Assembly (NCBI GenBank): GCA_025060615.1
Contig: JANXBS010000020.1
Location: forward strand, 7,319-71,318
DNA: 64,000 nt
Source: Anaerolineae bacterium
Lineage (GTDB): Bacteria; Chloroflexota; Anaerolineae; DUEN01
Direction: 5' to 3'
Shown: piece after piece, positions 1 through 56,700 of the stretch
Position numbering within the stretch: the stretch's first letter is position 1
How the letters are laid out: every line of letters starts with the position of its first letter
Notes under the pieces: generated by a model
Seen by the model: only the letters and a program-made list of their open reading frames with translations
Databases searched by the model: none
What the model was told of the DNA's origin: nothing
Program-made: the position numbers and the translations under genes

Positions 1-1875
1 TATCTCGTCTTCCCCTACCGGCTCTATGACCTATTCGTGCGTGGCGCCCTGCCCGAGTTCGCGGCCTTCCTCTGGTTGCCATTGATCGCTTACTTGAACC
101 ACCGTCTGGCTCAAATCATTTCCACCGGGAAGCCTGCGCTTGAGATGATGCGCATCCCTATGTTCTTTCTGTTGAGCCTCGCGTGGGCTGGCCTTTTCTG
201 CACCCACAACTTGACTGCCCTCATGGCTGTGTTCATGGCTGCCCTGATGATCCCTCTCCTGGCCCTCACTCGCGCTTCAGCTTCTCCCCATCCCGCTTTG
301 TGGCCTGCTTTGGTGAATAGCAGCAAACTGATAGGGCTTCCTCTCCTAGCCGGTATCTTGGCGGGCATGATACAAATCGCGCCGTCTATCTGGGAAGCGC
401 CTTGGGTTAAGCTGGGGCTCGCCGCCAGCGATTTCGGGTTTCGCCGCCACTTGGCGAGCTGGGCTGATCTGATCACAATGGCCCCTGTGTTTCCTTATCC
501 CAACGCCGCTGAGCCGACGGTGCCTCTGCCTGGATATTTATTGATTAGCTTGGGAATGGCCCTGTTGGCATGGCTCTTCTGGCGGACGATGCCTGGGCGA
601 GGATACCTCACCGTAGCGTTGGCGATAAGCGGCATCACGCTTTTCCTCACCACAGAGGCCAGTTCACCCGTGTGGCATGGATTGCTGCCAGTGATGGGCA
701 GGCTTCAGTTCCCCTGGCGGTGGCAGGCGCCTCTCTCGCTGGCCTTTACGTGCGCGGTGGCGACCCTCCTAGAAGCCTTTTGGACGGCCCTTCCTCGTCG
801 AACGGCAGCCAGCGGCCGGTGGTTGACCGGCGTTAGCGCGCTGCTGGCCACCTACACCGGCGCCTACGCGACCCTCGGGCTAGCACCTAATCCGGCGCCG
901 TATACAGCCCGAGATCTCACCGTGGAACACATGTGGCAATTCGACGCCGAACATGGACAGGTGGGGGCTACTTGGACGGCGGAGTTTCTGCCCCGCTGGG
1001 TAAGCGAACAGCGATGGGCGCTCGGGCGCGCTCCATCCTCCGCTGAGGGGCCAACAGACGCTAGGCCCGTCACCTTTACCGCCATCCCTCTCGTTCAGGG
1101 TTACCTGCGTGAGAGCTGGTTCGTCACCGCCTCTCAGCCGTTAACGCTCCGTTTTCACCGCTTTTACTACCCCGCTTGGCAGGTCACCGTAGATGGCCAC
1201 CGTGTCCCCGCCTATCCAGATGGCGTCATGGGCCTGCTCGCCTTCGACCTGGAGGCCGGAGCTCATCAGCTAGAGCTCCGTTTCACTGTCACGCCAGCAG
1301 TTCAACTTGGCTGGCTATGCAGCGGAGTGACGCTACTGGGCCTCTCCTTCCTGGCGCTGCGTCCATATGGTCGCCTTAGGTTAAAGGTGGGACTGGCCGT
1401 GATAACGTTGCTGACCGTGATGACATGGAATCCTCTAGAGACGGCAGTCCATCCGCGGCCCATCGGCGCGGATTACGGCCCCGTACGCCTGGAGGCGATT
1501 GCCATCGGCAAAGCGCGCCCTGGAGAGAGGCTGCCCGTACATCTCTACTGGTCCGTTCAGAGGCCCACAGGGCCACTGACCGCCTTTGTGCATGTGGTAG
1601 GAGCGGACGGACGGATCGCCACGCAACGGGATGAACCGCTCGCTGGCCCATATACTCCCGCTGAGCGCTGGCGCTCTGGGATGGTGCTAAACTACACGCA
1701 CTGGGTGCCGGTACCCGCCGACATACCAGCAGGCGAGTACACCATCTACGTGGGCCTCTATCCCCCCGGCCAACCCGAAGCCCCCCTTCAACCTCTGAAC
1801 CGGCCCGATACGCGTCTGGCGGTGGGCGTTGTGAGGATAAGCCCCCTGACCATCTGGCCCGGCCGAACAGAATAA
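1..1875 (+). CDS. 5'-truncated multi-pass membrane protein (PTPS-related/YfhO-like GT-C fold) with C-terminal extracytoplasmic beta module
   Basis: Frame 1 is open from base 1 (YLVFPYRLYDLFVRGALPEFAAFLWLP), so the gene starts before the window. It has many hydrophobic segments, the QFPWRW and FYYPAWQVTVDG motifs, and a C-terminal LYW...AFVHVVGADG...QRD...RW..G...PAGEYTIYVGLY module. Confidence 0.7.
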   Translation, partial: YLVFPYRLYDLFVRGALPEFAAFLWLPLIAYLNHRLAQIISTGKPALEMMRIPMFFLLSLAWAGLFCTHNLTALMAVFMAALMIPLLALTRASASPHPALWPALVNSSKLIGLPLLAGILAGMIQIAPSIWEAPWVKLGLAASDFGFRRHLASWADLITMAPVFPYPNAAEPTVPLPGYLLISLGMALLAWLFWRTMPGRGYLTVALAISGITLFLTTEASSPVWHGLLPVMGRLQFPWRWQAPLSLAFTCAVATLLEAFWTALPRRTAASGRWLTGVSALLATYTGAYATLGLAPNPAPYTARDLTVEHMWQFDAEHGQVGATWTAEFLPRWVSEQRWALGRAPSSAEGPTDARPVTFTAIPLVQGYLRESWFVTASQPLTLRFHRFYYPAWQVTVDGHRVPAYPDGVMGLLAFDLEAGAHQLELRFTVTPAVQLGWLCSGVTLLGLSFLALRPYGRLRLKVGLAVITLLTVMTWNPLETAVHPRPIGADYGPVRLEAIAIGKARPGERLPVHLYWSVQRPTGPLTAFVHVVGADGRIATQRDEPLAGPYTPAERWRSGMVLNYTHWVPVPADIPAGEYTIYVGLYPPGQPEAPLQPLNRPDTRLAVGVVRISPLTIWPGRTE

Positions 1876-1882
1876 GCCTGCC

Positions 1883-2746: not shown

Positions 2747-2752
2747 CGGCTG

Positions 2753-3718: not shown

Positions 3719-3788
3719 GCCATCCTACACGGGTAAACTTTTCAACCCGATAGCCATGCCGGTACCCTCGCAGGAGCGTCAGAGGAGG

Positions 3789-11512: not shown

Positions 11513-12931
11513 CTACTGAGGCCACGACCAGGGTAAGGTGTTCTGGTATACCCAAGCAATAGTGTGCAATGCCTGCGCGGCGATGAGCATCACCCCTGCT
11601 TGTAGCAACGCCTCTCGATCGGACAAAACGGCCGCCAGACGGTCGGCCAGCAGTAGCGTCAGGGGAATCGCCGCAGGGGCGAAGAGATCCCAATCCCGCT
11701 GGCCGCCGTAGTCGGGGTTCCACGTCCAGATGAAGAGCAGGTAGGCGCCGCTCGCCAGGCATAGCAGGTGTGTCCACGTCGTGCCATGGCGCATCTGCGG
11801 CCAAGCTAGGAGCGCTAAGCATACTAACGCCGGCAACACTACCGGCGCGATCAGCAGTTGCTCGTTCACGATGTCGAGTAGGTGTCCCCACGAGAACATT
11901 GTGTAATGTTCCCACCGAGTTGTAGTCTTAAACAGTGGCACTAGCCAGCGGCCATCGCCGCCGCCAGGCCGATCCTCGCCGACCAGATAGGCCAGGCCAT
12001 GTCCCCCGCTTTCCATCAGGGTGATCACTCCGCCCGACACGACGATCATGGGCAACGCGATCTGCCAGGCAGCAACCAGGCCTCCACTTGTCCCCGCTCT
12101 GCGACGAGCCCAGGCCCAGCCCAGGTATACCAGCGACGGAGCCAGCAATAATGTCGAAGGATGCAGCGCATGGGTGATCGCCAGTGCTGTCGCTGGCCAG
12201 ACGGGCATGAGCCGTCCCTGCAGGCAACGCCAGGCCAGCCACAGGTAGACCATCATCCCCAAAGACATCAACGTGTAGTTCTCCACGTAACCGAAGAAGA
12301 GCTGGATAGTCCCCAGCGTGATAACCAGGCCAAAAGTGAGCGGAGGCAAAGAGCGCTTTGCTCCTGACGGCTCATCCCTGCCCGTAGCGGGTAGCGTGGA
12401 CAGCTCTGCCGAGAGCCGGGCCAGCACATGGACAAAAACCCCACCTGCCAGCGTGCTGGTCAGCGCATATGCGGGCATGGCATCGGCCCAGCCCCATAGC
12501 CGATGGCCGAGCGCCCATAGCTGCGCATGCAGATAGACAGTGAGCGGGGCCTGCCAGTTGTAGGTGAGGCGAACCTCTGGGTGGGCAATGGCCTGGCTGA
12601 GGATGTAGGCGTCGCCCCAGCGGGTATGAGCCAGGCGGAATAGCCAGAAGGGAATTAGGCTAACGAGGCCGAGCAGCCATGGGAGATGAGGAACAGGTGG
12701 GCGGTTGGAGAGGCGATCCAGCCATGTGGCGATGCGTTGTGTCATCGGCGGCCAACAGATGAAGGCAGCCAGCCCGGCCAACGTCCAGCGCATGGGCATC
12801 GGCAGATACGTCGCCGGCCACACCCCCCAGGCGTATGACTCGTCCAGAAAGTGGACCAGCCCGTGCAAGAGGATGATAGCCAACGCAAGGACCCGCAAAC
12901 TGGCGAGGATCCAAGGCGATCGGACAAGCAT
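11513..12931 (-). CDS. Multi-pass membrane protein, probable GT-C fold transferase
   Basis: About 10 hydrophobic segments; WGDAY in the first loop, FFGYVENY, WNPDYGGQRDWDLF. Start moved to ATG 12931 because ATG 12940 directly abuts the TACAAT -10 element. Confidence 0.6.
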   Translation of the reverse strand: MLVRSPWILASLRVLALAIILLHGLVHFLDESYAWGVWPATYLPMPMRWTLAGLAAFICWPPMTQRIATWLDRLSNRPPVPHLPWLLGLVSLIPFWLFRLAHTRWGDAYILSQAIAHPEVRLTYNWQAPLTVYLHAQLWALGHRLWGWADAMPAYALTSTLAGGVFVHVLARLSAELSTLPATGRDEPSGAKRSLPPLTFGLVITLGTIQLFFGYVENYTLMSLGMMVYLWLAWRCLQGRLMPVWPATALAITHALHPSTLLLAPSLVYLGWAWARRRAGTSGGLVAAWQIALPMIVVSGGVITLMESGGHGLAYLVGEDRPGGGDGRWLVPLFKTTTRWEHYTMFSWGHLLDIVNEQLLIAPVVLPALVCLALLAWPQMRHGTTWTHLLCLASGAYLLFIWTWNPDYGGQRDWDLFAPAAIPLTLLLADRLAAVLSDREALLQAGVMLIAAQALHTIAWVYQNTLPWSWPQ

Positions 12932-12940
12932 GATAGGCAT

Positions 12941-17953: not shown

Positions 17954-18028
17954 GGAAAACCAATAATACGTGGATGTCCTTGGGGTGTTGCTCTCAGATA
18001 TCCATCTATCCATCCTGGACAGGCGAAG

Positions 18029-20620: not shown

Positions 20621-20673
20621 TAGAAAGTCAACGGGTATCAGCAGGTAGCTTGTGGACTTGTAGGAGGACATGG

Positions 20674-22407: not shown

Positions 22408-22487
22408 GTCAGCGAGAAATTCAACTATCTCGTCGCCTTGCTGCCCGAATGCCTGCTATCTTCTTGACCAATGGCAAGGGGTCGGAG

Positions 22488-36444: not shown

Positions 36445-36501
36445 TGGTTTCCCTCCTCGATTACAGAAAATCTCAGCAGGCGTTCAGGAAGGCGAAGCTG
36501 A

Positions 36502-39457: not shown

Positions 39458-42037
39458 CTACCGAGTTTGCACGGTGATAATTTGCGGCAACAGCACCCGA
39501 TCCCCTTGCGGGTTGCCGGCGGCATCCGTGACGGGCAGGCGCGTCCCCGAGGCGGTCAGGTACATGCCGACCTCCAATTGATGCGGACCGGGCGATGCCT
39601 CTGGCGCTACGACGAGGCGCACCTCGTCCACCACTACCTCGCCGAATGCCCAGGTGTACGTCGGTCGCAGCCCCCCGCCGGGCAGGCCGTCACGCTGGCC
39701 TCGTACCTGGTGGTTTGCGTCGAGCAGGTGGACAAAAACGGTGTAGGATTCGGCTATGGGCGCTCGCGCCCGCCAGTACAGGCGCACGTGCAGCTCCTCA
39801 CCAGGTCTGACCACAGTCGGCCCTGCGTCGTATCCCAGCAAGCGGACCTGCCCTCCGAAATCCATGTCCACCTGTTGCGGGACGTGCGGCGGCGTGAACA
39901 GGCGAGCGGGCACTTCTTCAGCCGGCCCTCGCCAGCGATTGCGCAGCGTCGCCAACTGGAGAAGCGTTCGCTCGCCGGGCAGCCGCACCTGCCACGGCGA
40001 TTCGAGCACCCGTGGCCGCAAGCGGCGGCCGAGGTCCCACACCTCATCGCCCTCGTACACACCGACGGCCACGCCGAACTCCGGCGTATCCTGAGTCCAC
40101 CAAGTCACTGGGTTAAAGACCACGCGGATCACTTCGCCGGGCTGCCAGCGCTGGGTGGGATACCAGACTAGCGCGGCAGGCGGCTCGGTGGTCGCGCCGA
40201 CGACGTCGCCGTTGGCGTTCAGCTCGAAAAGAGCGATTTGGTAGTCGGTGGACAGGGAGCGCAGCGCCTCGAAGTACAGGGTGTATACCCGCTCATCGCC
40301 GCGCCGGCCCTCGATATCATAGCCATGGAGCCGCAGCACGCCTTCGCCCGTGTCGGGCCGCGCGAACTCGGCGTTGAGCGGATATTCTGGGACCGCATCG
40401 TTAGCCCGCAGGAAGCTGTAGAAGGCGTCGGGGAGCGGCCGCGGCGGCGCCCCGCGTTGGAGGAGGATGTAGCCATCCTCGGCAGCGATCACGCCGAATT
40501 CGCTGCCTCCGACCACGTGGTCTCGCATCCAGGTCAGGAAGTTGTCCTTATTGGCCGTAAACGTAGCCGCGTCCAGCAACAGATATTCAGTGTTCAGCGA
40601 GTAGGGGAAGAGGTTGATGCGGTCACGTTGGCTGAAGTGCGGATTGAGGTTGGATTGCGTTGAGAGGCTGGCGTTGCTTGGGATAAGCCTGGCGATGTCC
40701 TGAAGCCGGCGGTCATGCTCGCTCACCTCTGGCCAGGTGAACCCTTCCGCCAGCGGTGTGAAACCTCGGTGGTAGTGATAGGCCAGCGTACAGGTTAACA
40801 CCCACAGGCTGAGGACCATCGCGATACGCCGCATAAGAGGAACCTGATCCTGGTCAGTGAACGGGAAAGGCGATGAGCCATAGGGCGACGAGAAATGAAG
40901 GCGACCAGTTCCCAATTGGTGACTGATCCAGGCCGTTCCCATGATGCCGGAGACGATCACAAATGGGACCAGCGGCGCCGCGTAGTGGTATCGCTCCAGG
41001 TAGTGCATCTGCGCGTTGTCGCTGATCAAGTTGATGAGTAAAGAGGGCAGGAGCATAACCAGCGTGGCCGGGCTGAACAGCGAAAGCCATCCCACCGGCG
41101 CCAGCAACCGTACCATATAGCGTAGGTTGCCCTCCGTCAAAAGTTTGCCCAGTGCTATGGATATGACGGTGTTATCCTGGCCGGCCGAATCGCCAAACAA
41201 TTGAATTACCGAACCGTAATAGTTCAAATACGGTGATCGGCCACTGGTGTTAAAGGCCGGCACGATCACGAAAACGGCGATCAGAAACCAGGTGATTCCC
41301 GCGAGCGCTACCGGTATCCCCAGTCGTGGCCGACGCTGAATTGCGGCGGCGTATAGCCCCATCATCGCCACCAGGAGCGGTATCTCCTCTTTCGTCGCCG
41401 CGGCCAGCAGCCCAAAGGCTAGGAACCAGCGCGTGCGCCCACAGAGCAGCCCATACGCGGCGAACAGGAGCAGGCTGGCGGCTAGCGTCACGGCGTGGAA
41501 GTCAAAGAGGTTGGCCGCTTCCAACGCCGGGAAGAGCAGATATGCGGTTGGAAAGACGACCGCAGGTAGCCCCTTGCCCAGGCGATCGCGGGCCAGCCAG
41601 TAGGCTGGCAGCGCACCTAAGGCGAGGACAACTGTTTGCAGGATCAATAGCGCCCGCGGGTCGCTCCAAATCCAATATAGTGGCGCAATTAAAAAGTAGA
41701 TCGGCTCTACGTGCATAGCCAGCCGGGTGCCAGCCTTGAAGGTCTTGGCCCGTCCCTCCCAGTTGGTGAAGGCCAGCGGCCGGCCATGCGCCGTGTTCCA
41801 CACTGCCTGGTCCACGTTGCCCAGGTCGTACGCGTTCGTCTCTAGCCCATTATGGCGGGCGATAGTAATGGCGCTGAAGAAGACGGTATAGGCGATAATC
41901 AGCAGAGCTACTAACGCCCCACTCCAGCCGCAAGAGGTGTTGCGCCATACGTGTAACATTTTAGGCTTCACTTTGTGTTTTGCGGGCTTTGCATCTTTTC
42001 GTGCCCTTGCGGTCTCACCTCCTTCTTGTGATGCCAA
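39458..42037 (-). CDS. DUF2079-family GT-C membrane protein with two C-terminal beta modules
   Basis: YDLGNVDQAVWNT, MHVEPIY, NLFDFH, KEE, HYAAP, LLDAA. The start may be ATG 41959. Confidence 0.8.
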   Translation of the reverse strand: MASQEGGETARARKDAKPAKHKVKPKMLHVWRNTSCGWSGALVALLIIAYTVFFSAITIARHNGLETNAYDLGNVDQAVWNTAHGRPLAFTNWEGRAKTFKAGTRLAMHVEPIYFLIAPLYWIWSDPRALLILQTVVLALGALPAYWLARDRLGKGLPAVVFPTAYLLFPALEAANLFDFHAVTLAASLLLFAAYGLLCGRTRWFLAFGLLAAATKEEIPLLVAMMGLYAAAIQRRPRLGIPVALAGITWFLIAVFVIVPAFNTSGRSPYLNYYGSVIQLFGDSAGQDNTVISIALGKLLTEGNLRYMVRLLAPVGWLSLFSPATLVMLLPSLLINLISDNAQMHYLERYHYAAPLVPFVIVSGIMGTAWISHQLGTGRLHFSSPYGSSPFPFTDQDQVPLMRRIAMVLSLWVLTCTLAYHYHRGFTPLAEGFTWPEVSEHDRRLQDIARLIPSNASLSTQSNLNPHFSQRDRINLFPYSLNTEYLLLDAATFTANKDNFLTWMRDHVVGGSEFGVIAAEDGYILLQRGAPPRPLPDAFYSFLRANDAVPEYPLNAEFARPDTGEGVLRLHGYDIEGRRGDERVYTLYFEALRSLSTDYQIALFELNANGDVVGATTEPPAALVWYPTQRWQPGEVIRVVFNPVTWWTQDTPEFGVAVGVYEGDEVWDLGRRLRPRVLESPWQVRLPGERTLLQLATLRNRWRGPAEEVPARLFTPPHVPQQVDMDFGGQVRLLGYDAGPTVVRPGEELHVRLYWRARAPIAESYTVFVHLLDANHQVRGQRDGLPGGGLRPTYTWAFGEVVVDEVRLVVAPEASPGPHQLEVGMYLTASGTRLPVTDAAGNPQGDRVLLPQIITVQTR

Positions 42038-46522: not shown

Positions 46523-47320
46523 TCACCCCTGTTTCATGAACGCCACGCGAGCCTCATCGGCCAACAGGTACAGAGGATCGGCCTGGATCAGCGGCAGGAT
46601 GATCTCTCGCATTTGGCCGGCGTGGATCAGCCGTGCATGGGCCTGTCCCACACGCCCTTCCCGCATGGCTCCTGCCTGTCGCAACGGCTCATCTATTCGG
46701 GAGAAGTTACGCTTCCAGCCCCACAGGTGAAGCCGACCGGACACCACGAGCTCACGGCCATCGGCATCCACGACGATGGCGTGGGTAATCTGATACTGGA
46801 GGTGATACGGCACCCCAGCTAGCTCCTCCAACGCATGCAGGGAAGTGTTGCTCTCCTGCGTGCATCCCAGCAGCAGGATGTAGCCGCCACGATCCATCAG
46901 TCGGATGTACGGGCTGCCGGGACCGCACGGCGTGGTACAGTGCTCGTGGCCGGTCGTATACCATTCGGCCTGCGCGCCGATGGCTGTGACCGAATGCGTG
47001 GGATGCAGGCTACGGCGGGCTTCAGGCCGCCGTCGAAACGCCTCTGGAATGCGGCCGATCCAGCTCGCGCACGGGGTGGAGCGCACATCCATGCGCGGTG
47101 GACGGTCTGGCCCATCCTCCGGCGAGCCGGTGAGGGCCGGCGCCAACACCGTCCCGCCGGGCGATACCGCTGCGATGAGGGCGTCTACGACCGTGTCGGC
47201 GCCTCCTTCGACCCATCCCAGGCTGCTTAACGAGGAATGAACCAACACCTCGTCGCCGGGTCGCAGCCCCAGCGCGCGCAGGTCTGCAACGATCTCTACG
47301 GCCGTTAACCCGCGGTTCAT
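46523..47320 (-). CDS. AAC(3)/YokD-family N-acetyltransferase
   Basis: LVHSSLSSLGWVEGGADTVVDAL, GGTVLAP, SLHPTHSVTAIG, GGYILLLG...NTSLHALEE. Confidence 0.9.
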   Translation of the reverse strand: MNRGLTAVEIVADLRALGLRPGDEVLVHSSLSSLGWVEGGADTVVDALIAAVSPGGTVLAPALTGSPEDGPDRPPRMDVRSTPCASWIGRIPEAFRRRPEARRSLHPTHSVTAIGAQAEWYTTGHEHCTTPCGPGSPYIRLMDRGGYILLLGCTQESNTSLHALEELAGVPYHLQYQITHAIVVDADGRELVVSGRLHLWGWKRNFSRIDEPLRQAGAMREGRVGQAHARLIHAGQMREIILPLIQADPLYLLADEARVAFMKQG

Positions 47321-47345: not shown

Positions 47346-49754
47346 TCATAGCACGACCTGAACCTGAACCGGCAGGTAGATCGCCTGCATGGCTTGATCT
47401 ACCCCTTCACCCGCTATATCTACCCTCTTTCCGCTGTCCGGATCGTACATGCCCAGACAGATCCTGTACAGCCCCGGCGATAACGTCGGAGCCAGATTGA
47501 TCGCATAGAGATCGGGCACCAGATCGCCCGGACGCCAGCGGCTGGTGGGCCAGGAGTTGCCCAGCGGCGGGCTATCTCCCTGGCCAGCGAGCTGTCCGGA
47601 TGAGTCCAGCAGGTGCACGAAGACAGTGTAATCTCGATCTGGCGTAGCTTCGACCTGCCAGAACAGGCGCAGATGTAGCGTCTCCCCTGGGTGAACCTGA
47701 ACGCGGCCTTGGCCATTCTCTAGAGCGAAACCGGCCAATACCACTCCATTCGCTAACCGTGCTCTTATCGGCTGCGCCTGATCCGGAAGTTTGTCGCGGC
47801 GAGTGGCGATGGTCACTTCGCCAGAAGCGGTGAAGGATGCCAAATAGACTAGCGTATCTCCCTGGAAACGACGTGGCACAAGGTCGCCATCTTCCCCAAT
47901 GTAGGGCAACCGCGTGCTCGGATCCCATACGTTGGGGCCGCGAATCCATCCCAAGGCCATTGCATACACCTTTCCCGGCTCCAGCAGCCAATCTATGGTG
48001 TTCGCCCGCACTTCGACTATCCGGCCCGGCTGCCAGAGGCTCGTAGGATACCACACCAAAGCAGGCTGCGGAAATTCGGTGGCAGCGATAAGCGTACCAG
48101 GCTCCTCCACCAGATAGAGGATCAAGCGATAGTCCTCCTGCAGTGGGCGCAATGCCTCGAAGTACAGCGAGAGATGTGGAGCCTGGCCCGAGCGGGGATC
48201 AACCTCGTAGCCGAGGAAACGGATTACATCGCCAAAGCGGCCGGACATCCGTATATCGGGGTTGACGTCCTCAGGCAGGGCAAATCGGTAAAACGAATCG
48301 GGAAGCGGCCGGCGAGGAGCCCCCCGTTGAAATAGCACATACCCATCATCGGCAGCGATCAGGCCAAAATCCCCGCTCTCTAGGAGCCGTTGACGAAGGT
48401 AAGTCTGGATGTCGCCATAGTTGTTGCCAGGGTAGCTTTTCACATCAAGGAGGGCGTATTCGCAGTCCAGCGAATAGGGTAGTAGATGGATGGTGGACCG
48501 ATGCGTGAAGTGCGGATTAAGGTTGTCTTGAGTGCAAAGGCTAGCGTCATCCGGGATCAACCTCGCGAACTCTGCCAACCCGCGCTGATGTGAGGTGGGC
48601 CTCGGCCACTGAAAATCAGCGGCAAAGGGCATCCACGGCGAGCGGCTCGAAGACCACGCCGAGGCGAGCAGCAAGAGGCCCAGGGTTGCCGTCTGGGCTG
48701 GCTTCAGCCATGTCGGACGCCGCAATTGCGTCCAGCCCCACAGGGTTGCCAACCCGAGCGCGGCAGCGGCGGTGGCGATAGGAATCAAGGCGGCCACATA
48801 TTGGCGGCCGAACGTCCTCATCTGGCGGTCGCTACTCAGCAGGTTGATGGCCAACTCAGGGATCGCTGGTATCAACGCGGGGAGATTCAGCAGGGGTAGG
48901 CCGGCTAAGGGCAGCAGATAGTTCAGATAATACCTGCGAGCGACGTGATCCGTCAGGTTGGCTAGCATGTGTGAGGCGGCCGCGCGTGACATCGCAGCTT
49001 GATAACGGGACAGGTACGGAGAGCGACCGACGATGTTGTAAGCCGGAATGATGACGAAAGTGGCGATCGTGAACCAGGCCAAGGCTAGCAGGACGACGAC
49101 GATGCCGAAGCATCGCCGTTTTTGCATCAGCCAGGCCCACACTCCTAAGCCGGCGACCGCTAATGGGATGTTCTCCTTCGTCGCCATTGCCAGGGTGGCG
49201 ACGAGGGCAAATGGCCCATTGCGCTTCTCTTCCACGAAGTCGAAGGCGGCCAACAGCAAGGGAGCGGCCAGGGCGACGGCGTGGAAATCGCTGGTGACTA
49301 ACGAGTGTAGGCCAGGATGGGCGAGATAGGCCAAAGCGAGGCTCGCGCCAGCGGCTTCACTGTACAGCCGGCGACGGGCCAGGCGATATGCCGGGATCGC
49401 CCCCAAGGCCACAGCCGCAGCCTGAAGGATCAATAAGGCCCGCACATCTTCCCATAGCCAGTACAGAGGGACTAGGAGAAAATAGATCGGCTCGACGTGC
49501 ATCCCCAGCCGAGTGGGCTCTCGGAACCAGTTGTCCTTGCCAACCCAATTGGTGAATCGCAGCGGCCGGCCATGGGCTGTGTTCCACAAGGCTTGGTCGG
49601 CGTTCCCCAGATCGTAACCGGCTGTCTGGAATGCCTCATGGCGGGCGACCGACAGCGCGCCGAAGTATATCGCAAACGCCAGGGTGGCCAGGATCGTAAG
49701 CAGCAAACCCCACTTGCGGAACACGATCAAGCTTTTCACGGCTTGTGTCGCCAT
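47346..49754 (-). CDS. DUF2079-family GT-C membrane protein with two C-terminal beta modules
   Basis: YDLGNADQALWNT, MHVEPIY, DFH, KEN; close paralogue of 39458..42037. Confidence 0.8.
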   Translation of the reverse strand: MATQAVKSLIVFRKWGLLLTILATLAFAIYFGALSVARHEAFQTAGYDLGNADQALWNTAHGRPLRFTNWVGKDNWFREPTRLGMHVEPIYFLLVPLYWLWEDVRALLILQAAAVALGAIPAYRLARRRLYSEAAGASLALAYLAHPGLHSLVTSDFHAVALAAPLLLAAFDFVEEKRNGPFALVATLAMATKENIPLAVAGLGVWAWLMQKRRCFGIVVVLLALAWFTIATFVIIPAYNIVGRSPYLSRYQAAMSRAAASHMLANLTDHVARRYYLNYLLPLAGLPLLNLPALIPAIPELAINLLSSDRQMRTFGRQYVAALIPIATAAAALGLATLWGWTQLRRPTWLKPAQTATLGLLLLASAWSSSRSPWMPFAADFQWPRPTSHQRGLAEFARLIPDDASLCTQDNLNPHFTHRSTIHLLPYSLDCEYALLDVKSYPGNNYGDIQTYLRQRLLESGDFGLIAADDGYVLFQRGAPRRPLPDSFYRFALPEDVNPDIRMSGRFGDVIRFLGYEVDPRSGQAPHLSLYFEALRPLQEDYRLILYLVEEPGTLIAATEFPQPALVWYPTSLWQPGRIVEVRANTIDWLLEPGKVYAMALGWIRGPNVWDPSTRLPYIGEDGDLVPRRFQGDTLVYLASFTASGEVTIATRRDKLPDQAQPIRARLANGVVLAGFALENGQGRVQVHPGETLHLRLFWQVEATPDRDYTVFVHLLDSSGQLAGQGDSPPLGNSWPTSRWRPGDLVPDLYAINLAPTLSPGLYRICLGMYDPDSGKRVDIAGEGVDQAMQAIYLPVQVQVVL

Positions 49755-51955
49755 AGGCGCGGCAGCACCTGCACACGTAGAGGCAGCAAGATGCGATCGC
49801 CTGCGGGCTGGCCAAACGCGTCCACGACGTTCAGCCGGACGCCTGTGGCCGGATCGTACATCCCCACTTCAAGCCAATAATCCCCAGCCCGCGCATCCCA
49901 GGGTATTTTGAGCCTATACCGGTCCACGATCACTGTGCGTTCGGGCCAGGCATCGGTGGGCATTGTCCCGTTCACCGGCGGGTTATCCTTCGCTGCGGCC
50001 AGGGTTCCATCCGGCGTAAGTAGATGTGTGAAGACCGTGTAGGAACCGACCTGCTCTCCTGCTTTCCCCGAGGGCGGTTCCACGAGCAGCCAATACAACT
50101 GCAATGTAATCCTCTGACCCGGCATAGCTAGAGGCGGATCTACGTGCGCGTTGATCAGCCGAAAACGGCCGCCCAGCGTGCCCAGCCCAGCCGGCGACCA
50201 GCTTGGATCGGCCCCCACGCGATACAAGCTGCCCCTGGGCATGTTTAGCTTCATCATGGGCCGGCCCGCCGCCAACCGCTCGACGAACTCCGTCCCTTCG
50301 TCATCGCCCACCCAGATCCAAGGCTCACTATTGGAATGGGGCAGCTTCTCTAACAGGGCATCCCACCGTGGTCCTGGCGCCAGAACCAGGTCAACCTGAT
50401 CCCGCAAAAACGGATAGAGATGGCGAAACACGATCCCATCGGTGGTGATCACCGTCTCTTGCGGGATCGTCCTCTGTGCCTGTAGGAGAGCGATGGTTGC
50501 TGCGTAGGGTTCACGGATGAGCCGGGAAGAGATGTACGCGTTCCACGCCGGCTTCAGAAGGGCAATGCCGGCCAAGACAACGAGCCCGGCGGCGATGAAG
50601 ACCGCGCGCGGCCACCACGAGGGCGGAAGATACGATGGGCGCACTGTGATCAGGGCGAAGTCGGCGGTGAGGATCGTTAATAGCCCTGTACGGGCCAACA
50701 CGACAGCTCCTAATAACCACGGAGCATCAGAAAGCATACTGGCCAGGATCGGGTGTTCGATCGTGTTCAGCCCGGTGAACAGCACCACATAGGTTAAGCC
50801 GCGCAGATGGGGCATCAGCAGGATGATCAACGGCAGCAGATAGACCAGGTACTGCGGATTCCACGCTTTGAAATAGAGGAACAGCAAGGCCACGGTGAAC
50901 CCGGTCAGCGCGAGGACGCGATGCGGCGTGTTGTCATGGCGTCGCCGCGTCCAAACGGCCAGATAGATCAGCCCGAACACCAGCGTGACCAACGCCCAGG
51001 GCACGCGCGAGGCATGCAGGGAGACATCCGCCAGCGGATCAGCGCGATCGCCGACCACGGCCCCGATGCGGTCAAAGCCATCTAGCAACGCCCAAATCGT
51101 AGACCAGCTCGACCGGGCGACCAGGCTGCGAGCGAAGGCCATGAAATAGGCCGGGCTAAGGGCATAGGCGATAGCCGCAATGGGAACCATAACGAGTAGC
51201 CCGGCGCCGATCAACGCAATCTTGGAGCCCCAGCCGCGCAGCGCACGCAAAGCCGGCCCCAACAAGACGATAGGGAATAGCTTAATAGCCGTCCCTGCGC
51301 CGATGAGAAGCCCCGCCAGCACCGGCCGTGCTGCCAGGATTGCCCACAACCCCAACAACAGGAAGGCTAACGGCAGTGAATCAAACGCGCTGGTCATGGT
51401 GTAAACCGGCACGAACAGCCCAGCATACAGCCAAGCTGTGCGCACTGCCCTATCCTTGTCCCATGTGTGCAAGGCGATCCCGTATAGCGCAAGGAAGCTT
51501 ACCGTCTCGCAGGCCAGCAGGAAGAGCGCTAGTGGGACATGAAACCACAATCGATCGTCCTCCCACAATGGGATCGGACGCACCAGCTGATACAGGGCGA
51601 CTGTCAGCCAGGGGAACGGGGGCGGATATTCCGACCAGTAATCCCGGAACGGGAAGGCCCCTCGATCTATCTGGCTAGCTCCGCCTAGATAGTAGACGAA
51701 ATCTGAATAATCACGGACATAGCCACCCGGCCGGTACAGGAGCGCGGTGAAGAAGCGAAAGGTAATGAACAACACCAGCAACAACACGAAGTCGCTGTGC
51801 GCCTGATAGCGCGCGCGAACAGAAGCCTCTAAATCGAACCCATTTCTCAGGCCTCTGAGACAGATAAGCTTCGGAAACCTGATCGGACGATCTCTTAGAG
51901 ATCCCCCGAGCCAACCTTGCTGGGGAGCTGTCTTTTGCTCGATTGTGTCGGTCAT
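49736..51955 (-). CDS. GT87/DUF2029-like GT-C membrane protein with one C-terminal beta module
   Basis: SDFVYY, DYWSEYPP, FDSLP, IKLFP, WNPQYLVY. Start moved to ATG 51955 (ATGA overlap with the upstream stop). Confidence 0.72.
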   Translation of the reverse strand: MTDTIEQKTAPQQGWLGGSLRDRPIRFPKLICLRGLRNGFDLEASVRARYQAHSDFVLLLVLFITFRFFTALLYRPGGYVRDYSDFVYYLGGASQIDRGAFPFRDYWSEYPPPFPWLTVALYQLVRPIPLWEDDRLWFHVPLALFLLACETVSFLALYGIALHTWDKDRAVRTAWLYAGLFVPVYTMTSAFDSLPLAFLLLGLWAILAARPVLAGLLIGAGTAIKLFPIVLLGPALRALRGWGSKIALIGAGLLVMVPIAAIAYALSPAYFMAFARSLVARSSWSTIWALLDGFDRIGAVVGDRADPLADVSLHASRVPWALVTLVFGLIYLAVWTRRRHDNTPHRVLALTGFTVALLFLYFKAWNPQYLVYLLPLIILLMPHLRGLTYVVLFTGLNTIEHPILASMLSDAPWLLGAVVLARTGLLTILTADFALITVRPSYLPPSWWPRAVFIAAGLVVLAGIALLKPAWNAYISSRLIREPYAATIALLQAQRTIPQETVITTDGIVFRHLYPFLRDQVDLVLAPGPRWDALLEKLPHSNSEPWIWVGDDEGTEFVERLAAGRPMMKLNMPRGSLYRVGADPSWSPAGLGTLGGRFRLINAHVDPPLAMPGQRITLQLYWLLVEPPSGKAGEQVGSYTVFTHLLTPDGTLAAAKDNPPVNGTMPTDAWPERTVIVDRYRLKIPWDARAGDYWLEVGMYDPATGVRLNVVDAFGQPAGDRILLPLRVQVLPRLWRHKP

Positions 51956-53721
51956 CGTCGATTGGAACGCTGATAGAGCGCGACTAGTGGCACTCCTTGA
52001 TAGTCCAATGTCCACACAGGCTGATGCTGCGCCATGTAGTCTACCACATAGTCGAAAAACGTCGTCTGTCGGTATTCGACGATGGCGAAGTCAGCCTGAT
52101 CCATGCCCCCCTCTGTCCACTTCACGCCGGAATCGTCGTAGAACGATCCCCACCCTGGCGGCCGGACCATCACCAAATCGTCTCGCAGTAACCCAGCCTT
52201 TTGATAGTAATACATCACATCCCAACTATTGGGCATGACCCATACCGTTGCTCCGGGAGCAGCCCGACGATTCAGCTCGGGCAGGACCGCCCGATAGGTA
52301 GACGCCCAGTAGATGGTCTCCAATTGCAGGCGATGAGCGCCGCGTACACCACCGATGGCCTCGTTGTAGTAGGCCAGCTCGAACGGATGCAGGCGGACGA
52401 TGGCGAGAGCGCCGGGCGCAAGCATGGCGATACCCAAGACGACGGTGAGGAGCTCGGGCCATGCCTTCCTCATAACGATGGGCGATGGGAGACTCCCGCC
52501 CGAGATCCGTCGTTCATCGTCTCGCGTACGCGCAAAAGCACGCGAGGAGAGCCAGCGTGCTGCTGTATCGAACCCTAGACCGACCAACGGCGCTAGAAAC
52601 ACATAGGTCGGCATAAGCAGGCGATCGCCATCGAAGGCGCGGCTGCTCGGCCGCATAAACCATGCCACGGGGAGCAGCGCCTGGATCAGCCACAGCCTGG
52701 CCGCCAGTTGCGTCGGCCCCGGCCGGATCCCCTGGGCCGCGCCGATCGCGGCCAGCGCCAGCAACGGGACCGGCACCGTCACCAGCACCGTAACGATTGG
52801 GAAGTGCCATGGTGGCTCTAGGTAGGTTTTGCCGAGGTAGTACTGGTAGATCTCGTAGTGGCTAACGGTGAAAAAGCGTGCCCAGTTGATCAGTTTGGAA
52901 CCGGTTTCCGACCAAAACCAAGGGAACAATACGATGAGTGTCAGCAGGCCCAGCGGGCCCATCAGGATCAGACGCCCCCACAGGTCCCAGCGTCGCCGCT
53001 GATCACGAGAGGCGAGCACCCACAGCACCACGCCTATCGAGGCCAACACGTTGCTGATCTTCGTGGCAAGCGCCAGCCCGAAGGCCAGCCCGGGCACAAT
53101 CCACGTCCACAGCTGGCTGAAACCTCGCAAGCTGCTCCAAGAAGGCTTCACCGTAGAAGGATCCTGGGCGTTTCCAGCGGCCTCCGTGATGAGGGTGAGC
53201 CGCCAGAAGACCCACACGGCAAAAAACCACAGGGCCGCCGCCGGCAAGTCCAGCCCTGCGACATGCGCGTGGAAGAAAAGCCGGGGCATATCAAGCAACG
53301 CCAAAGCTCCTACCAGCGCGCCGATCCGCCCAGCCCCGGCCTGACGCACGGCTACATAGATCCACGCAGCCAACGTTGCAGACAACGCCATCGGCCCTAC
53401 CCGGTGCGCCGTGGGCAGAGGAAGCCAATTTCGGGTCAACGCCCACCCCAACCCGCTGATCGCCTTGGCCAGGGGGGGATGCTCGTGGTTTAAGCCGAAG
53501 CTAAGGCCGATGGCCGTTGGGTTTAGTGACTCACTCACATCCCCACGGACCAACCCACGAATCAGCATCCCCAGCCAGAGGATGATGCGCTGGCCGTTTT
53601 CGGCGTAGACCGGCTCATCCCACCCGACGGCCAACGTCCGCTCAGTGGCGAAGAGTACCCCAAATACGCTGATGGCCAGGATCAATGCAATCCAGCGATC
53701 CTGATGATCCCACCGGCTCAC
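51952..53721 (-). CDS. PMT/ArnT-like (GT39/83) membrane glycosyltransferase
   Basis: GWDEPVY, NHEHPPLAK, FFHAHVAGLD, GLALATKIS, HPFELAYYNE; GTGA overlap with the upstream gene. Confidence 0.8.
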   Translation of the reverse strand: MSRWDHQDRWIALILAISVFGVLFATERTLAVGWDEPVYAENGQRIILWLGMLIRGLVRGDVSESLNPTAIGLSFGLNHEHPPLAKAISGLGWALTRNWLPLPTAHRVGPMALSATLAAWIYVAVRQAGAGRIGALVGALALLDMPRLFFHAHVAGLDLPAAALWFFAVWVFWRLTLITEAAGNAQDPSTVKPSWSSLRGFSQLWTWIVPGLAFGLALATKISNVLASIGVVLWVLASRDQRRRWDLWGRLILMGPLGLLTLIVLFPWFWSETGSKLINWARFFTVSHYEIYQYYLGKTYLEPPWHFPIVTVLVTVPVPLLALAAIGAAQGIRPGPTQLAARLWLIQALLPVAWFMRPSSRAFDGDRLLMPTYVFLAPLVGLGFDTAARWLSSRAFARTRDDERRISGGSLPSPIVMRKAWPELLTVVLGIAMLAPGALAIVRLHPFELAYYNEAIGGVRGAHRLQLETIYWASTYRAVLPELNRRAAPGATVWVMPNSWDVMYYYQKAGLLRDDLVMVRPPGWGSFYDDSGVKWTEGGMDQADFAIVEYRQTTFFDYVVDYMAQHQPVWTLDYQGVPLVALYQRSNRR

Positions 53722-56700
53722 GGCGTTTCCCCCACAGCGATTTCTCCCAGCATGACGTGATCCGCCGTTGGACTCCCAGTCGCATCCAACACCAGCAACC
53801 GTTCGAGCGAATCGGGACGATAGAGCCCGGCTTCTAGCAAATACACGCCGGCAGGAAGGTCTGGCGGTATCGTCAATCGGTAGCGATCGGCCAGGACCTC
53901 ACCCGGCAGCCAGCCGGTGGTGGGGAATTGCCCTTCGCCTGGCACCTGGTCCCTCTGGGCTACGACCGTGCGATCGGCGTCTAACATGTGCACGAAGCCG
54001 ATATGTGACACGTCCCATGTCCTCAGCGGTTGCCAGTACAGGGTGACCAGATACGTCTCGCCGGCCTTCCAGCGTCGCGCCGGCCGGCCGGCCTCATCGG
54101 TCAGGTCGCATCCCAACAAGATCACTTGGTTACTCAGGTTTACATCGAGGCGAAGCTGCATGGAAGGAACGATGAATGTGTGAGGCCGCCCACGCACGCG
54201 GATCGTGCCGGCTGATGCCCGGGCCACTTCCCGACCGGCCTCGTCCTGGATCACCAGGAACGCCTGATAGAGCCCATCAGACAGCCCTGGGGGAAGCAAG
54301 GCATTCCATATGTCGCGGACGATGGCGCGAGGAGGCCATCGTTCTGGTGAGTAAGCACCGCCTATTGGATGCGTAGACGGCCGTTCCCAAGTCTGACCCT
54401 GCGCATCCTGCAAGATTAATCGAACGTTGAACGCATGGGATGGGGCAACAGCGGTGAGGCGCTGCTTCTCCCCGGCCTGCCACCATAGCACTAGTGGCCA
54501 GGGCGCCCCGTCTGGAAGTTCATCGGCCTCATAGCTCAGGCCTAATAACGTGATATCGCCAGCTGCGAGGTCTAGCCGTTGTCTGATCTCCAGGCGCTTA
54601 GGATCGGCCGGAACCGGCTCCGGCCCGATGGTCACATGGCCAAGCCTCAAGCGATCGCCTAGTGGTGCGCCATCGCTCGCTGTGATCGTCAAGTTGCGCC
54701 CCAGCGAGGGCGAGAACAGCGCGATCTCTAGCTCGTAGGTGCCAGGCGGGGTGCCTGGAAACGCAGACACCGCCTGGGCGTCACGAATGCGCATTCCGGG
54801 TAGCCAGCGATCCAACGGCAGAAAGCCGTCCACCGGCGGCCGGTCGTGCCTGCCCCAGATGCGTCCAGCGCTGTCACGCAGCCCGACAAACACGCTGAGA
54901 TCAGGGACGGGCGGTTTCAACACTTCCCAGTACAGGCGCAGGTTGCCCCGTCCAGCCAGCAACGGATCAGCCGGCGGCTCCCAGCCGAGCAGCCTGATTT
55001 GCCCCTCGAACACGGCGTCAAGGGGGATCACGTCGGTAGGCAGTGGCCCTGGCGGCACCATCGGCCCCGGATAGACCCAGGCGTAGTCAATGCCCGCGAG
55101 CCTGACGGTAAACTCGGCCGGCTGCTCTCGAAAATACCGGATGACCTGAGGGGCTGGCAGGGAGCGCTGTACTTGATTGACATACAGAACCACATAGTGG
55201 GCCATCGCCCATGGCCAAAAGCCGTCGGGTAATTGCTGATTGAGCTCCATAGTGCGGCCGGCGAAGTACGGGTCCAGGACAGAGGGATACCAGGCCGCCG
55301 CCATCTGGTGCGCGGAGCCGTCCTGGGCCGATAGCCACTTCCCTGCCTGATCTAACCCCTCGCCGTTGCCGATCATGAGGATTTGACGGGCGACGGAGGC
55401 GCCGCCAGCGAGCGGGCTGTAGAAGGCCTGTAGATCGGGGAAAACCGACAGCAGAAAAGCCGCCTGAGCGATGGCTAACAAAAGTTGAGCGGTCGCAGAG
55501 GGGTGACGAGCGAGACGAGAAAGCGGACGATAGGTGATGGACGAGAGACAACGCGCGAGCGCATGGATGCCCGTGGCGGCGATCAGCGCCAGCGCGGGAT
55601 AGGCCGGGATCAGGTAGCGATCGAACTTAGTCTCCGCCATCGTCAGCCCGGCCATCAGCGCAACTAGGAAGATCAGCCACGCTGCGATCAACCCTGGCCG
55701 GTGAATCCGCTGCCGAGCGGCCGAGACGGCCATCGCCACGAGCGTACCCAGCACAGCCAATAACGTCACTGGCGAGGTGCGGAAGAGCAGCGCCAGCGGG
55801 TAAAAGGCCGGGCCGGGAGCGTCTACGGTTTGCCCTAAAAAGAACTGATGGCGCTCGCCCAGCTCGACCTGCGTGATCTGCGCGTTTATCTTTTGCACGA
55901 CGCTGATAGAATCCACCCACAGCGCCGGCCAGAGGGCGACCGCGGTGAGCACGGCCAGCATCACCCAGCCGACCAGGACCACCCCCAGCGTCCTCCATTG
56001 CCCGTTGTCCTTCGACCGCCGCTTATCGTCTATCGCCCATCGCCTTAAAACAGCCCAGCTCGCCACCACCGGCCACAGGATGAGCGCTGGCAGCTTGGTG
56101 ATGATCGCTAGCCCACCCAGGATGCCAGAGATAATCACCCAGCGTCGGCCGTGACCATCCAAATAACACAGGAAAGCCAACAGCGACAGGGTCATTAGGT
56201 TGCCCTGGAGCGCGTCGGTGGTGATCACCCGATTGTAGCCGAGCCAAAACGGCTCCAGTGCCAACAATACCGCCGCCATCAGCGCGATCTCCCGGCCGTG
56301 GACGCGACTGGCCCATCGGTAGATCAGCACGGTGCACAGCGAAGTGACCACGGCGAAGGGGATGCGGGCGGCAATGTAGTAGTCCAGGGATGGGTATGCA
56401 TCGCGTGGAAGGACGGTGATCTCCAAGGTGGGGATGGGCTCGCCGAGGACAGCGGACCGGCCGGCCAGCCCCGCGGCGATCAGCCATAGATTGGTGACTC
56501 CGGGATGGGCGCTGCCGTAGGTGTTTGCCCAATCACCGGCTTGCAAGGCCAGCAGAAACCGGGCACCGCGGCGCAGCCACTCCACGCTATCCACGACGAT
56601 GGGCTGGCCGATCCAGAGCAAGCGGAGCAGCAAGGAGATGAGGAACAGCCCAATTGAGAAGGCTAGAAGGGACGAAGAGCGGGAAACGGGAAACGAGAAG

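Follow-up and report, generated by a model that had tools for sequence, protein, structure and literature searches.

The window analysed here, a 64,000-nucleotide stretch of DNA from an Anaerolineae bacterium, raises the question of what purpose is served by a C-terminal sequence module that recurs at the ends of several different membrane enzymes. The original prediction counted nine copies of about 120 residues, and all nine are found, in frame, as the C-terminal ends of five open reading frames (Table 1), with a module length of 125-140 residues rather than 120. In BLASTP comparisons the canonical copies share 30-45% identity pairwise across 85-135 residues (B2 and E3 41%, E 4e-27; B2 and D1 39%; D1 and E3 45%). 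B1 and C1, which open the arrays of the two DUF2079 proteins and are 40% identical to each other, have degenerate forms of the motif, as do E1 and E2, the latter being the most divergent copy with BLASTP matches to C2 (6e-09) and E1 (4e-06). A profile built from the nine copies, which align significantly, revealed no tenth copy among the 905 six-frame open reading frames of the window. Furthermore, an external-only HMM, built from 30 outside homologues and zero window sequences, finds nine of nine copies (independent E-values between 1e-54 and 4.5e-06), with no other sequence in the six frames scoring at E<1, which excludes chance. Together with the BLASTP matches, this bears out the proposal of a real recurrent domain.

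Table 1. Module-bearing proteins, their module copies and the module-less gene between proteins E and D (positions in the window; HMM, external-only HMM; i-E, independent E-value).
Feature	Position	Strand	Match
Protein A, GT-C-like membrane protein of the YfhO/PTPS-related type, 5'-truncated, single module at the C-terminus	37..1875	+	
Copy A1, single; E76 and D80 positions degenerate	1468..1872	+	HMM i-E 2.7e-20
Protein B, DUF2079 GT-C membrane protein, two modules	39458..42037	-	Pfam DUF2079 1.4e-65
Copy B1, degenerate inner, 'YFEAL...ALVWYPT..W.PG' type	39944..40381	-	HMM i-E 3.6e-11
Copy B2, canonical terminal, the modelled copy	39461..39865	-	HMM i-E 1e-54
Protein C, DUF2079 GT-C membrane protein, two modules	47346..49754	-	Pfam DUF2079 2.4e-59
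Copy C1, degenerate inner	47832..48245	-	HMM i-E 4.3e-12
Copy C2, canonical terminal	47349..47765	-	HMM i-E 8.9e-42
Protein D, GT87-like GT-C, C-terminal alpha/beta domain, one module	49736..51955	-	Pfam GT87 3.5e-09
Copy D1, canonical, single	49760..50185	-	HMM i-E 4.3e-34
GT-C-like membrane protein of 589 aa without the module, lying between E and D	51952..53721	-	weak PMT_2 match, E 0.065
Protein E, PMT/PMT_2 (ArnT/GT39-like) GT-C, three modules	53718..56822	-	PMT_2 4.3e-12, PMT 7.5e-09
Copy E1, position-1 type, degenerate motif	54618..55022	-	HMM i-E 5.3e-27
Copy E2, position-2 type, most divergent	54189..54575	-	HMM i-E 4.5e-06
Copy E3, canonical terminal	53727..54146	-	HMM i-E 2.7e-43

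Five proteins carry the module, and their Pfam families number four rather than the predicted five, with DUF2079 occurring twice; the DUF2079, GT87 and PMT types that had been named are supported by Pfam matches, whereas protein A yields no PTPS_related match. The reading frame of protein A is open up to position 1 and cut by the window start, and the remaining part shows a sub-threshold YfhO C-terminal match (residues 377-429, 15.3 against the 28.5 bits required) as well as PgfM1/M2 tail matches, while homologues with its layout carry PTPS_related and YfhO matches. The description of these hosts as unrelated transferase families does not hold, since all are of GT-C type, protein A probably so: the DUF2079 profile compares to a PMT_2-type profile with an hhalign probability of 96.4% (E 1e-9; 9.6% in the comparison with GT87), and the AF2 model of full-length protein D (pLDDT 83.9, pTM 0.82) has a GT-C fold with Foldseek matches to ArnT, ALG9, PIG-M, PimE and STT3. 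Proteins B, C, D and E belong to the GT-C superfamily by profile or fold. Regarding gene boundaries, the ATG at 41959 is one possible start of protein B, and protein E probably starts at the ATG at 56822 with GAGGAG upstream, a longer reading frame reaching 56975 overlapping argS (56843-58549). A protein identical to C is found on NCBI contig JAVQTP010000004.1.

The genes for protein E, the 589-residue protein, D and C are four consecutive, translationally coupled GT-C genes, the second of which has GTGA and ATGA stop/start overlaps with its neighbours E and D, the ATG of D overlapping the preceding stop. Three of the four carry the module, which fits enzymes acting on a single shared polymer. 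The 589-residue protein has no module according to the HMM of the nine copies, and the module is also absent from four further GT-C genes in the window. Other GT-C genes of the window encode PMT_2 with an NHL propeller (22317-25904) and PMT with DUF2298 (13235-17953).

The supposition that the module does not correspond to an already characterised domain was borne out at the thresholds of the databases searched. A Pfam/NCBIfam scan of the five full proteins gave nothing over the module region, a PDB sequence search with the module gave no match at threshold, and the nine copies scanned singly against Pfam at E<=10 gave chance-level matches (FlgD_ig 0.03, Big_13 0.066, Wzt_C 0.087). Sub-threshold matches within module copies, both from the window and from homologues, include DUF4832 and, repeatedly, Wzt_C (E 0.087 for the best window copy, then 0.097, 0.0032 and 2e-05); the Wzt_C gathering score of 30.4 bits is never reached, the best score being 25.1 bits (the E 2e-05 match) for the first module copy of homologue P0365. 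A sub-threshold ML-domain match occurs in one of 39 homologues (E 4.4e-4), with 0.13 for homologue P0016. The latter barely passes MalQ_N over a 42-residue stretch (25.5 against 24.1 bits), which is treated as generic sandwich likeness.

The predicted beta-sandwich fold is confirmed by the AF2 model of copy B2, an eight-strand beta-sandwich with a pLDDT of 97.8, and the guess that it would resemble Wzt-C agrees with two independently modelled copies, for which the closest solved folds are Wzt carbohydrate-binding domains (CBDs). In Foldseek searches these are the best PDB neighbours of B2 (8dky_A, TMq 0.62; 6o14_A, 0.60; 2r5o_B, 0.59), with E around 1e-4 and 10-16% identity, and D1, whose beta strands lie within residues 592-730 in the model of full-length D, matches Wzt-C 2r5o_A with a TMt of 0.55. 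NPC2/ML, RhoGDI, PmoB and CARDB score nearly as well for B2, the TM for NPC2/ML and RhoGDI against the module being 0.5-0.58. Judging from these models, the module is a discrete Ig-like (E-set-type) beta-sandwich domain without a curated Pfam or NCBIfam match.

Beyond the window, the family comprises 24,164 clusters at 50% identity (E<=1e-10) in metagenomes, which makes it a very common metagenomic domain without a match in the curated families searched. A compositional or low-complexity likeness of Pro/Gly/Leu-rich tails, with no domain behind it, might be suspected from the G+C richness of the genome (60%) and from the degenerate motif that four of the nine copies show; this artefact is ruled out by the cluster count, the confidence of the B2 model and the external-only HMM, and has practically no probability left. 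Hosts were sampled as 154 module-bearing reading frames at 80 genome loci, 39 full-length representatives and 115 of 120 homologues of E, a selection biased towards the best-scoring 150 of 33,093 clusters and, in the genome scan, towards a single motif pattern. Within this sample, every classifiable host is a GT-C protein (PMT_2/PMT, DUF2079, PTPS_related/YfhO, GT87 or TMEM260-like), all named sources are Chloroflexota, and the module array is C-terminal except in one reading frame with an extra uncharacterised tail. The arrays range from one to four copies, and module-bearing genes adjoin one another in many genomes. In Chloroflexota, the module appears to have become the standard C-terminal appendage of polyprenyl-phosphate-sugar-dependent GT-C enzymes from at least five Pfam families.

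On which side of the membrane this appendage lies can be approached through protein D, whose full-length model contains 13 hydrophobic helices by manual count, with short, alternating R/K-rich loops that place the N-terminus inside and the C-terminus outside. The model aligns with ArnT over 617 columns, gaps counted (Foldseek), and the C-terminal domain of ArnT is periplasmic. From the helix count combined with the positive-inside rule and from the ArnT alignment, we infer that the module is extracytoplasmic and follows the last transmembrane helix, in protein D after an intervening alpha/beta domain seen in the AF2 model. Protein A has two hydrophobic helices upstream of the module, and this extra hairpin, with an RPYGRLRLK loop, brings the chain back to the side of its YfhO-like soluble domain. 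The active sites of GT-C enzymes likewise face the extracytoplasmic side.

The copies within an array are not interchangeable. In 129, 125 and 138 of 139 proteins the best match in another protein sits at the same array position, and the median score is 115 bits between terminal copies, compared with 58-64 bits for inner copies; judged by these results, copies in multi-copy arrays are position-specific orthologues. Copies in different window proteins are about 40% identical, whereas orthologues elsewhere reach 68-89%, which, together with array positions that were fixed anciently, speaks against a shuffled module in the sense of recent exchange. A near-invariant set of polar and aromatic residues (W31, F44, H46, Q57, D59, W72, E76, D80, Y102, R109) is confined to the last copy and lost from inner copies, with H46, Q57, D59, E76, D80, R109 and others conserved at 0.94-1.00 across the 139 distant proteins. 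Copy number varies: 115 of 120 homologues of E bear modules, with zero, one, two and three copies in 5, 57, 33 and 25 of them. Close orthologues of E (59-66% identity) retain the position-1 degenerate copy only; their lineage can therefore dispense with the canonical copy.

Based on fold and position, the module may be an extracytoplasmic CBM-like domain that docks glycans or acceptors, a reading to which we assign about an even chance. From such an outside position, which follows the last transmembrane helix and shares the side of the GT-C active site, it would hold a cell-envelope glycan acceptor, or the terminus of one, beside the membrane-embedded catalytic site. The canonical last copy would carry the binding site in its near-invariant residues, with G100 leaving room, while the degenerate inner copies would serve chiefly as spacers or secondary sites; we infer both the glycan binding and this division of labour. 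The top-ranking Wzt CBDs and the recurring sub-threshold Wzt_C matches point to a carbohydrate-binding domain, and the target recognised by the Wzt CBD is the O-antigen cap (PMC9445017). Several observations count against a CBM: Foldseek likeness among Ig-like sandwiches is generic at a TM of about 0.6 and 10-16% identity, hydrolases or surface proteins should carry a general CBM too, whereas the module was seen on GT-C hosts only in the sample, the canonical copy is dispensable in close orthologues of E, and the same operon and window contain module-less GT-C genes.

A different reading is a domain without a small ligand, a structural spacer, oligomerisation or scaffold element that would project or dimerise the enzymes or dock GT-Cs to one another or to a common partner protein and so build up a multi-enzyme glycan factory; a scaffold was the second option of the original prediction. 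Stalks typically consist of tandem Ig-like domains, here one to four, the motif of inner copies is degenerate, copy number differs among close orthologues (zero to three in the homologues of E), module-bearing genes are often adjacent, and Wzt CBDs are themselves dimeric (PMC9445017). However, some ten near-invariant residues kept across 139 distant proteins would be unexpected of a mere spacer, the best conserved copy is the distal one and not the membrane-proximal stalk element, and the operon includes an enzyme without it, which makes such a role rather unlikely. What favours glycan docking over a scaffold is fold analogy and context.

The ligand could also be a different one. PMT, PMT_2 and TMEM260-like proteins are enzymes of the protein O-mannosyltransferase type, and in eukaryotic PMT and TMTC enzymes MIR or TPR domains bind polypeptide substrates. 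An analogous recognition of protein acceptors by the module would agree with the dominance of PMT_2, PMT and TMEM260-like hosts among the 39 representatives (29, 12 and 5), with its distal and putatively extracytoplasmic position, and with the frequent binding of peptides or strands by Ig-like sandwiches. Yet the same canonical type of module occurs on GT87, DUF2079 and YfhO/PTPS-like enzymes; characterised GT87 (PimE) and YfhO relatives act on glycolipids or polymers (for DUF2079 no characterised member was found), no match to a protein-binding family turned up, and the closest folds bind glycans or lipids, leaving protein recognition quite improbable. Sterols and isoprenyl groups are the ligands of the ML/NPC2 and RhoGDI sandwiches, and the place of these proteins among the best fold matches, the ML-domain match in one homologue, the restriction of the module to GT-C enzymes of whichever family in the sampled hosts, and an invariant Arg and His that could bind phosphate would be compatible with a canonical copy that binds a molecule common to all GT-Cs, either the polyprenyl-phosphate carrier or else the lipid-linked donor of the sugar. 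This has a very small probability, as the canonical copy is two domains away from the membrane in three-copy proteins, tandem arrays are unusual among lipid-carrier domains, and the Wzt CBD matches the fold at least as well. In a related and similarly improbable version, the terminal copy would form a non-lectin active or ligand site (His46, Gln57, Asp59, Glu76, Asp80, Tyr102, Arg109) for the carrier or lipid-linked donor, capturing, presenting or recycling the carrier on the outer membrane face or perhaps performing a small catalytic activity on it; a ligand common to all GT-C enzymes would account for the occurrence of the module on GT-C proteins alone, in any family, among the sampled hosts.

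Returning to the preferred docking role, the module can be compared with several known systems. ML/NPC2 and RhoGDI reach comparable Foldseek scores but are free-standing lipid carriers with no significant sequence relation to it. Other GT-C appendages, such as the ArnT periplasmic domain, the NHL propeller and DUF2298, resemble it in being C-terminal or fused; these domains are catalogued families, whereas the module is uncatalogued and comes after such domains without replacing them. Wzt_C (PF14524) is, like the module, a C-terminal sandwich of about 140 residues on an envelope-glycan enzyme or transporter, and the two share a fold that other Ig-like sandwiches approach almost as closely. In contrast to the module, which follows a transmembrane domain, is probably outside and forms tandem arrays on GT-C hosts, the Wzt CBD resides in the cytoplasm, joined to the ATPase of an O-antigen ABC transporter, and acts as a dimer (PMC9445017). 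A functional parallel would be EmbC, a mycobacterial GT-C arabinosyltransferase dependent on polyprenyl-phosphate sugars, with a soluble, extracytoplasmic, beta-rich C-terminal appendage, a placement like that proposed for the module, from which no Pfam or PDB sequence match to an Emb-type C-terminal domain was obtained. EmbC's C-terminal domain is a CBM that binds the acceptor glycan via conserved Trp residues and without which the polymer is not extended, and when Trp is mutated both acceptor binding and activity are lost (PMC3044687); the module may play the same role. The EmbC CBM, however, consists of two subdomains of different folds and is used once, in one enzyme family, whereas here one small module is used in one to four copies across at least five GT-C families.

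All nine ranges proposed for a repeated C-terminal module translate into in-frame segments bearing the signature described for them, which was found at the C-terminal ends of five ORFs of the window (~60% G+C), here proteins A to E, with each copy named after its protein and its array position. Pairwise BLASTP puts the identity among A1, B2, C2, D1, E1 and E3 at 30-45% over stretches of 85-135 residues, with E-values as low as 4e-27, and that between B1 and C1 at 40%; the weakest copy, E2, still matches C2 (6e-09) and E1 (4e-06). BLASTP links thus run among all nine copies, and they align significantly, contrary to the outcome that the original prediction had named as speaking against it. Protein identities of 22-45% between copies rule out an origin by recent duplication or as a DNA repeat. 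An HMM of the nine copies revealed no tenth among the 905 six-frame ORFs of the window. In a non-circular test, an HMM built from 30 external homologues only recovered 9/9 copies, with independent E-values from 1e-54 (B2) to 4.5e-06 (E2), and no further window match with E<1, which excludes chance. The copies are real, and the view that the module is an artefact is refuted, retaining next to no probability.

Coordinates of the module-bearing genes and of other features of the window
Feature	Position	Strand	Remarks
Protein A	37-1875	+	5' part lost at window start; module at C-terminus
PMT/PMT_2 + DUF2298 fusion, 1572 aa	13235-17953	+	second GT-C cluster
DUF2298 protein, 863 aa	18029-20620	+	second GT-C cluster
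PMT_2 protein, 585 aa	20650-22407	+	second GT-C cluster
PMT_2 + C-terminal NHL-repeat beta-propeller, 1195 aa	22317-25904	+	second GT-C cluster
Protein B	39458-42037	-	DUF2079 (Pfam, 1e-65)
SpoIID/Big_7/PD40 protein, 1012 aa	43311-46349	-	after aminoglycoside-3-N-acetyltransferase-like gene
Aminoglycoside-3-N-acetyltransferase-like gene	46523-47320	-	after C, same strand
Protein C	47346-49754	-	DUF2079 (Pfam, 2e-59)
D/C overlap	49736-49754	-	19 nt
Protein D	49736-52015, probable start 51955	-	GT87 (Pfam, 3.5e-09)
589-aa gene/D overlap	51952-51955	-	ATGA
589-aa polytopic membrane protein gene	51952-53721	-	between E and D; weak PMT_2, E 0.065
E/589-aa gene overlap	53718-53721	-	GTGA
Protein E	53718-56975, probable start 56822	-	PMT_2/PMT (Pfam, 4e-12, 7.5e-09)

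The module had been described as attached to five unrelated transferase families. Five proteins do carry it, but DUF2079 occurs twice, which leaves four families, and these are not unrelated, since all are of GT-C type, that of A tentatively so. A DUF2079 membrane-domain profile, built with the modules excluded, matches a PMT_2-type profile over 267 membrane-domain columns (hhalign probability 96.4%, E 1e-9), while DUF2079 and GT87 profiles give no significant match. The full-length AlphaFold2 model of D (pLDDT 83.9, pTM 0.82) matches the GT-C structures ArnT 5f15, ALG9, PIG-M 9wno (TMt 0.66), PimE 9dm5/9dm7 and STT3. For the truncated protein A, Pfam gives only a sub-threshold YfhO C-terminal match, to which NCBIfam adds weak PgfM1/M2 tails, its sole addition for any of the proteins. 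Sequence searches of the PDB with B, D, E and the module profile returned nothing meaningful (best Lap adhesin 0.13, HEV ORF2 0.23, lamin Ig 0.1). Read from its TTG at 56975, the longest ORF of E shares 133 nt (56843-56975) with the 3' end of argS; translation more probably starts from the ATG at 56822, which has GAGGAG ahead of it.

The 64-kb window holds about ten GT-C genes, comprising the five with modules, the 589-aa gene, which lacks the module and has no Pfam match above threshold, and the second cluster (13235-25904, +), in which the module is absent from all four genes. Translational coupling links E, the 589-aa gene, D and C. On the same strand, the SpoIID/Big_7/PD40 gene is followed in turn by the genes for a PHP-domain protein, for B and for SerA; downstream of the block formed by B and serA, an ECF sigma factor lies with its putative anti-sigma partner, a DUF4179 protein (35323-37218, -). 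Elsewhere, a Crp/Fnr-type regulator precedes a nitrous-oxide-reductase-like protein with nos propeller and cupredoxin/COX2 domain (58595-61732, +), an Mrr-type restriction endonuclease domain protein adjoins a YceG-like gene (30571-31317, -), and a 475-aa ORF without a Pfam match at E<=0.001 sits beside a sugar ABC transporter operon (11513-12940, -).

Copy B2, modelled with AlphaFold2 from a 39-row alignment, is an eight-stranded beta-sandwich (pLDDT 97.8, pTM 0.90), in keeping with the sandwich anticipated from sequence. The suggested Wzt-C-like fold is likewise borne out by Foldseek, where the top PDB matches of B2 are Wzt carbohydrate-binding domains (8dl0, 8dky, 6o14, 2r5o; TMq 0.59-0.62, E ~1e-4), followed by NPC2/ML, RhoGDI, PmoB cupredoxin-like, NIS1 and CARDB domains; D1, in the independent full-length model of D, also matches Wzt-C 2r5o. 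Sub-threshold Pfam matches to Wzt_C occur in the homologues P0365 (2e-05, residues 589-660, its first copy) and L012 (0.0032), and module copies of homologues give sub-threshold matches to DUF4832, ML and MalQ_N. From the model, the Foldseek matches and these Pfam traces, the module is predicted to be an Ig-like/E-set sandwich and may be a distant relative of Wzt_C. No curated family in Pfam or NCBIfam covers it, whether full proteins or single copies are scanned, and a PDB sequence search with the module profile found no sequence-related solved structure, so that the expected lack of a characterised match stands. By the available tests, the module lies outside every curated family.

Helices were taken from the model of D, as crude hydropathy counts were too low (6-9 per protein) and were dropped. 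The model contains 13 hydrophobic helices; Arg and Lys abound in the short loops placed inside (the N-terminus, KDR, AAR, LRG, RRRHDNT, RPSYLPPS), and the short loops placed outside are uncharged or have Asp (SAFD, LSDA), except for two with a single Lys (KL, FKAWN). Helix count and loop charges point to an N-in, C-out topology, under which residues 485-580 (alpha/beta domain) and 592-730 (module) would both lie outside. The alignment of D with ArnT, whose C-terminal soluble domain is periplasmic, spans 617 columns, gaps counted. In A, two hydrophobic helices linked by RPYGRLRLK lie between a YfhO-like soluble region and the module, a hairpin that would return the chain to the side of the soluble region ahead of the module. 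The module is thus predicted to be extracytoplasmic.

When 1.84 billion cluster representatives were searched exhaustively with HMMER, the module turned up in 33,093 proteins at E<=1e-3; of these, 24,164 also pass E<=1e-10 and 9,117 pass E<=1e-30. Among the 33,093, the top-scoring 150 are mostly proteins of ~1,000 aa with three C-terminal copies, a few having four; the module profile, run in a word-index protein search, retrieved nothing longer than 256 aa, and these fragments were of no use for architecture. The window is identified with NCBI contig JAVQTP010000004.1 of assembly GCA_033581235.1. Scanning genomes yielded more than 600 matches, of which the 80 best loci all belong to Chloroflexota MAGs (Anaerolineae, Anaerolineales, Caldilineae), a taxon list biased by the underlying pattern [SD]YTVF[VT]HL[LV], derived from a narrower alignment. 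Named homologues of E are also all from Chloroflexota (Anaerolineae, Caldilineae, Ardenticatenaceae, Kouleothrix, Roseiflexaceae), a picture that holds within a sample skewed to close relatives. These 80 loci contain 154 module-bearing ORFs with C-terminal arrays of 1-4 copies, and module-bearing genes very often stand side by side, two to four of them on one strand. Single-sequence phmmer left 102/154 host N-termini unassigned, which were resolved by BLAST single-linkage clusters and Pfam searches on representatives; the identifiable host classes are all GT-C, namely PMT_2/PMT (the majority), DUF2079, PTPS_related/YfhO, GT87 and TMEM260-like. Compared by host family, in a sample dominated by PMT_2 hosts, terminal modules gave 7/11 for DUF2079, 3/3 for TMEM260 and mixed results for the others, without a clear trend. 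The sole exception to the C-terminal position, at L053:4432-8385 (+), has a GT-C-like membrane domain and two canonical modules followed by at least 530 residues, the ORF running past the end of the locus; this tail has no Pfam match and looks, by eye, like a sugar-binding jelly-roll plus a glycoside-hydrolase-like region.

Among 139 three-copy proteins, the best cross-protein match of a copy lies at the same array position in 129/139, 125/139 and 138/139 cases (positions 1-3), with a median between-protein score of 115 bits for the terminal copy versus 58-64 bits for the inner ones; judged by sequence, the copies in these arrays are position-specific orthologues. All copies share L29, W31, Y41, L47, P68, T69, W72, G93 and Y95 (B2 numbering). 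Near-invariant in the terminal copy only are F44 (0.99), H46 (0.95), Q57 (0.98), D59 (0.99), P62 (1.00), G65 (0.94), E76 (0.94), D80 (0.99), G100 (0.99), Y102 (0.99) and R109 (1.00), a pattern repeated in homologues of E; the B2 model places several of them in strands 3, 4, 5 and 6 and the others in the long strand 4-5 loop with its helical turn. Of the window copies, B2, C2 and E3 have the terminal set bar single substitutions (e.g. Asp for E76 in C2), D1 has nearly all of it, E76 and D80 are missing from A1, and B1, C1, E1 and E2 are degenerate. Of 120 homologues of E, five have no copy, 57 one, 33 two and 25 three, and the closest orthologues (P0276-P0285, ~698 aa, 59-66% identity) end after a degenerate position-1 copy, so that copy number shifts between close relatives.

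By analogy, the module may be an extracytoplasmic CBM-like glycan-docking domain, the most likely reading, to which we give an even chance. The terminal canonical copy would bind an envelope polymer or polymer end, and the inner copies would keep it at a distance from the active site in the membrane. In EmbC, Trp mutants of the C-terminal CBM lose acceptor binding and LAM extension (PMC3044687), and the carbohydrate-binding domain of Wzt reads the O-antigen cap (PMC9445017). Several points speak against glycan docking: similarity among such sandwiches is generic, some orthologues do without the canonical copy, the module is missing from several GT-C genes nearby, and it was not seen on proteins other than GT-C enzymes. 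The restriction to GT-C hosts, together with the NPC2/RhoGDI fold matches, would suggest binding of the carrier lipid, which we rate lowest of the functional alternatives; recognition of protein acceptors is scarcely more probable, and a role as spacer or scaffold is unlikely, if less so than these two. The original interpretation is partly supported, as sandwich, Wzt-like fold and lack of a characterised match hold; the claim of unrelated families is wrong, and the function is putative.

GT-C enzymes build cell envelopes, how they find their acceptors is understood for very few of them, and the envelope chemistry of Chloroflexota is poorly known. Here, a single uncatalogued domain with tens of thousands of sequence clusters marks the C-termini of at least five Chloroflexota GT-C families, and its definition as a family would improve the annotation of many 'hypothetical' or 'GT39 family' proteins. 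Its ligand, once found, would indicate the common polymer assembled by such expanded GT-C sets, and the sharply conserved terminal-copy residues offer a direct target for mutagenesis.

A full-text literature search found no description of the module, including among GT-C accessory domains in Chloroflexi, and no paper mentioning DUF2079. A CBM or sandwich tail on a GT-C enzyme is a known concept and not new; the module itself is an uncatalogued, very abundant accessory domain family. It failed sequence membership in Wzt_C, Emb-type domains and all Pfam and NCBIfam models: it resembles Wzt_C in fold but without a qualifying sequence match, and its proposed role would resemble that of the accessory CBMs of GT-C enzymes of the EmbC type, to whose domains it does not belong by sequence. 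What is unusual in comparison is that a single module is common to at least five GT-C families, that its array positions are anciently fixed and position-specific, and that its terminal copy carries a sharply conserved residue set.
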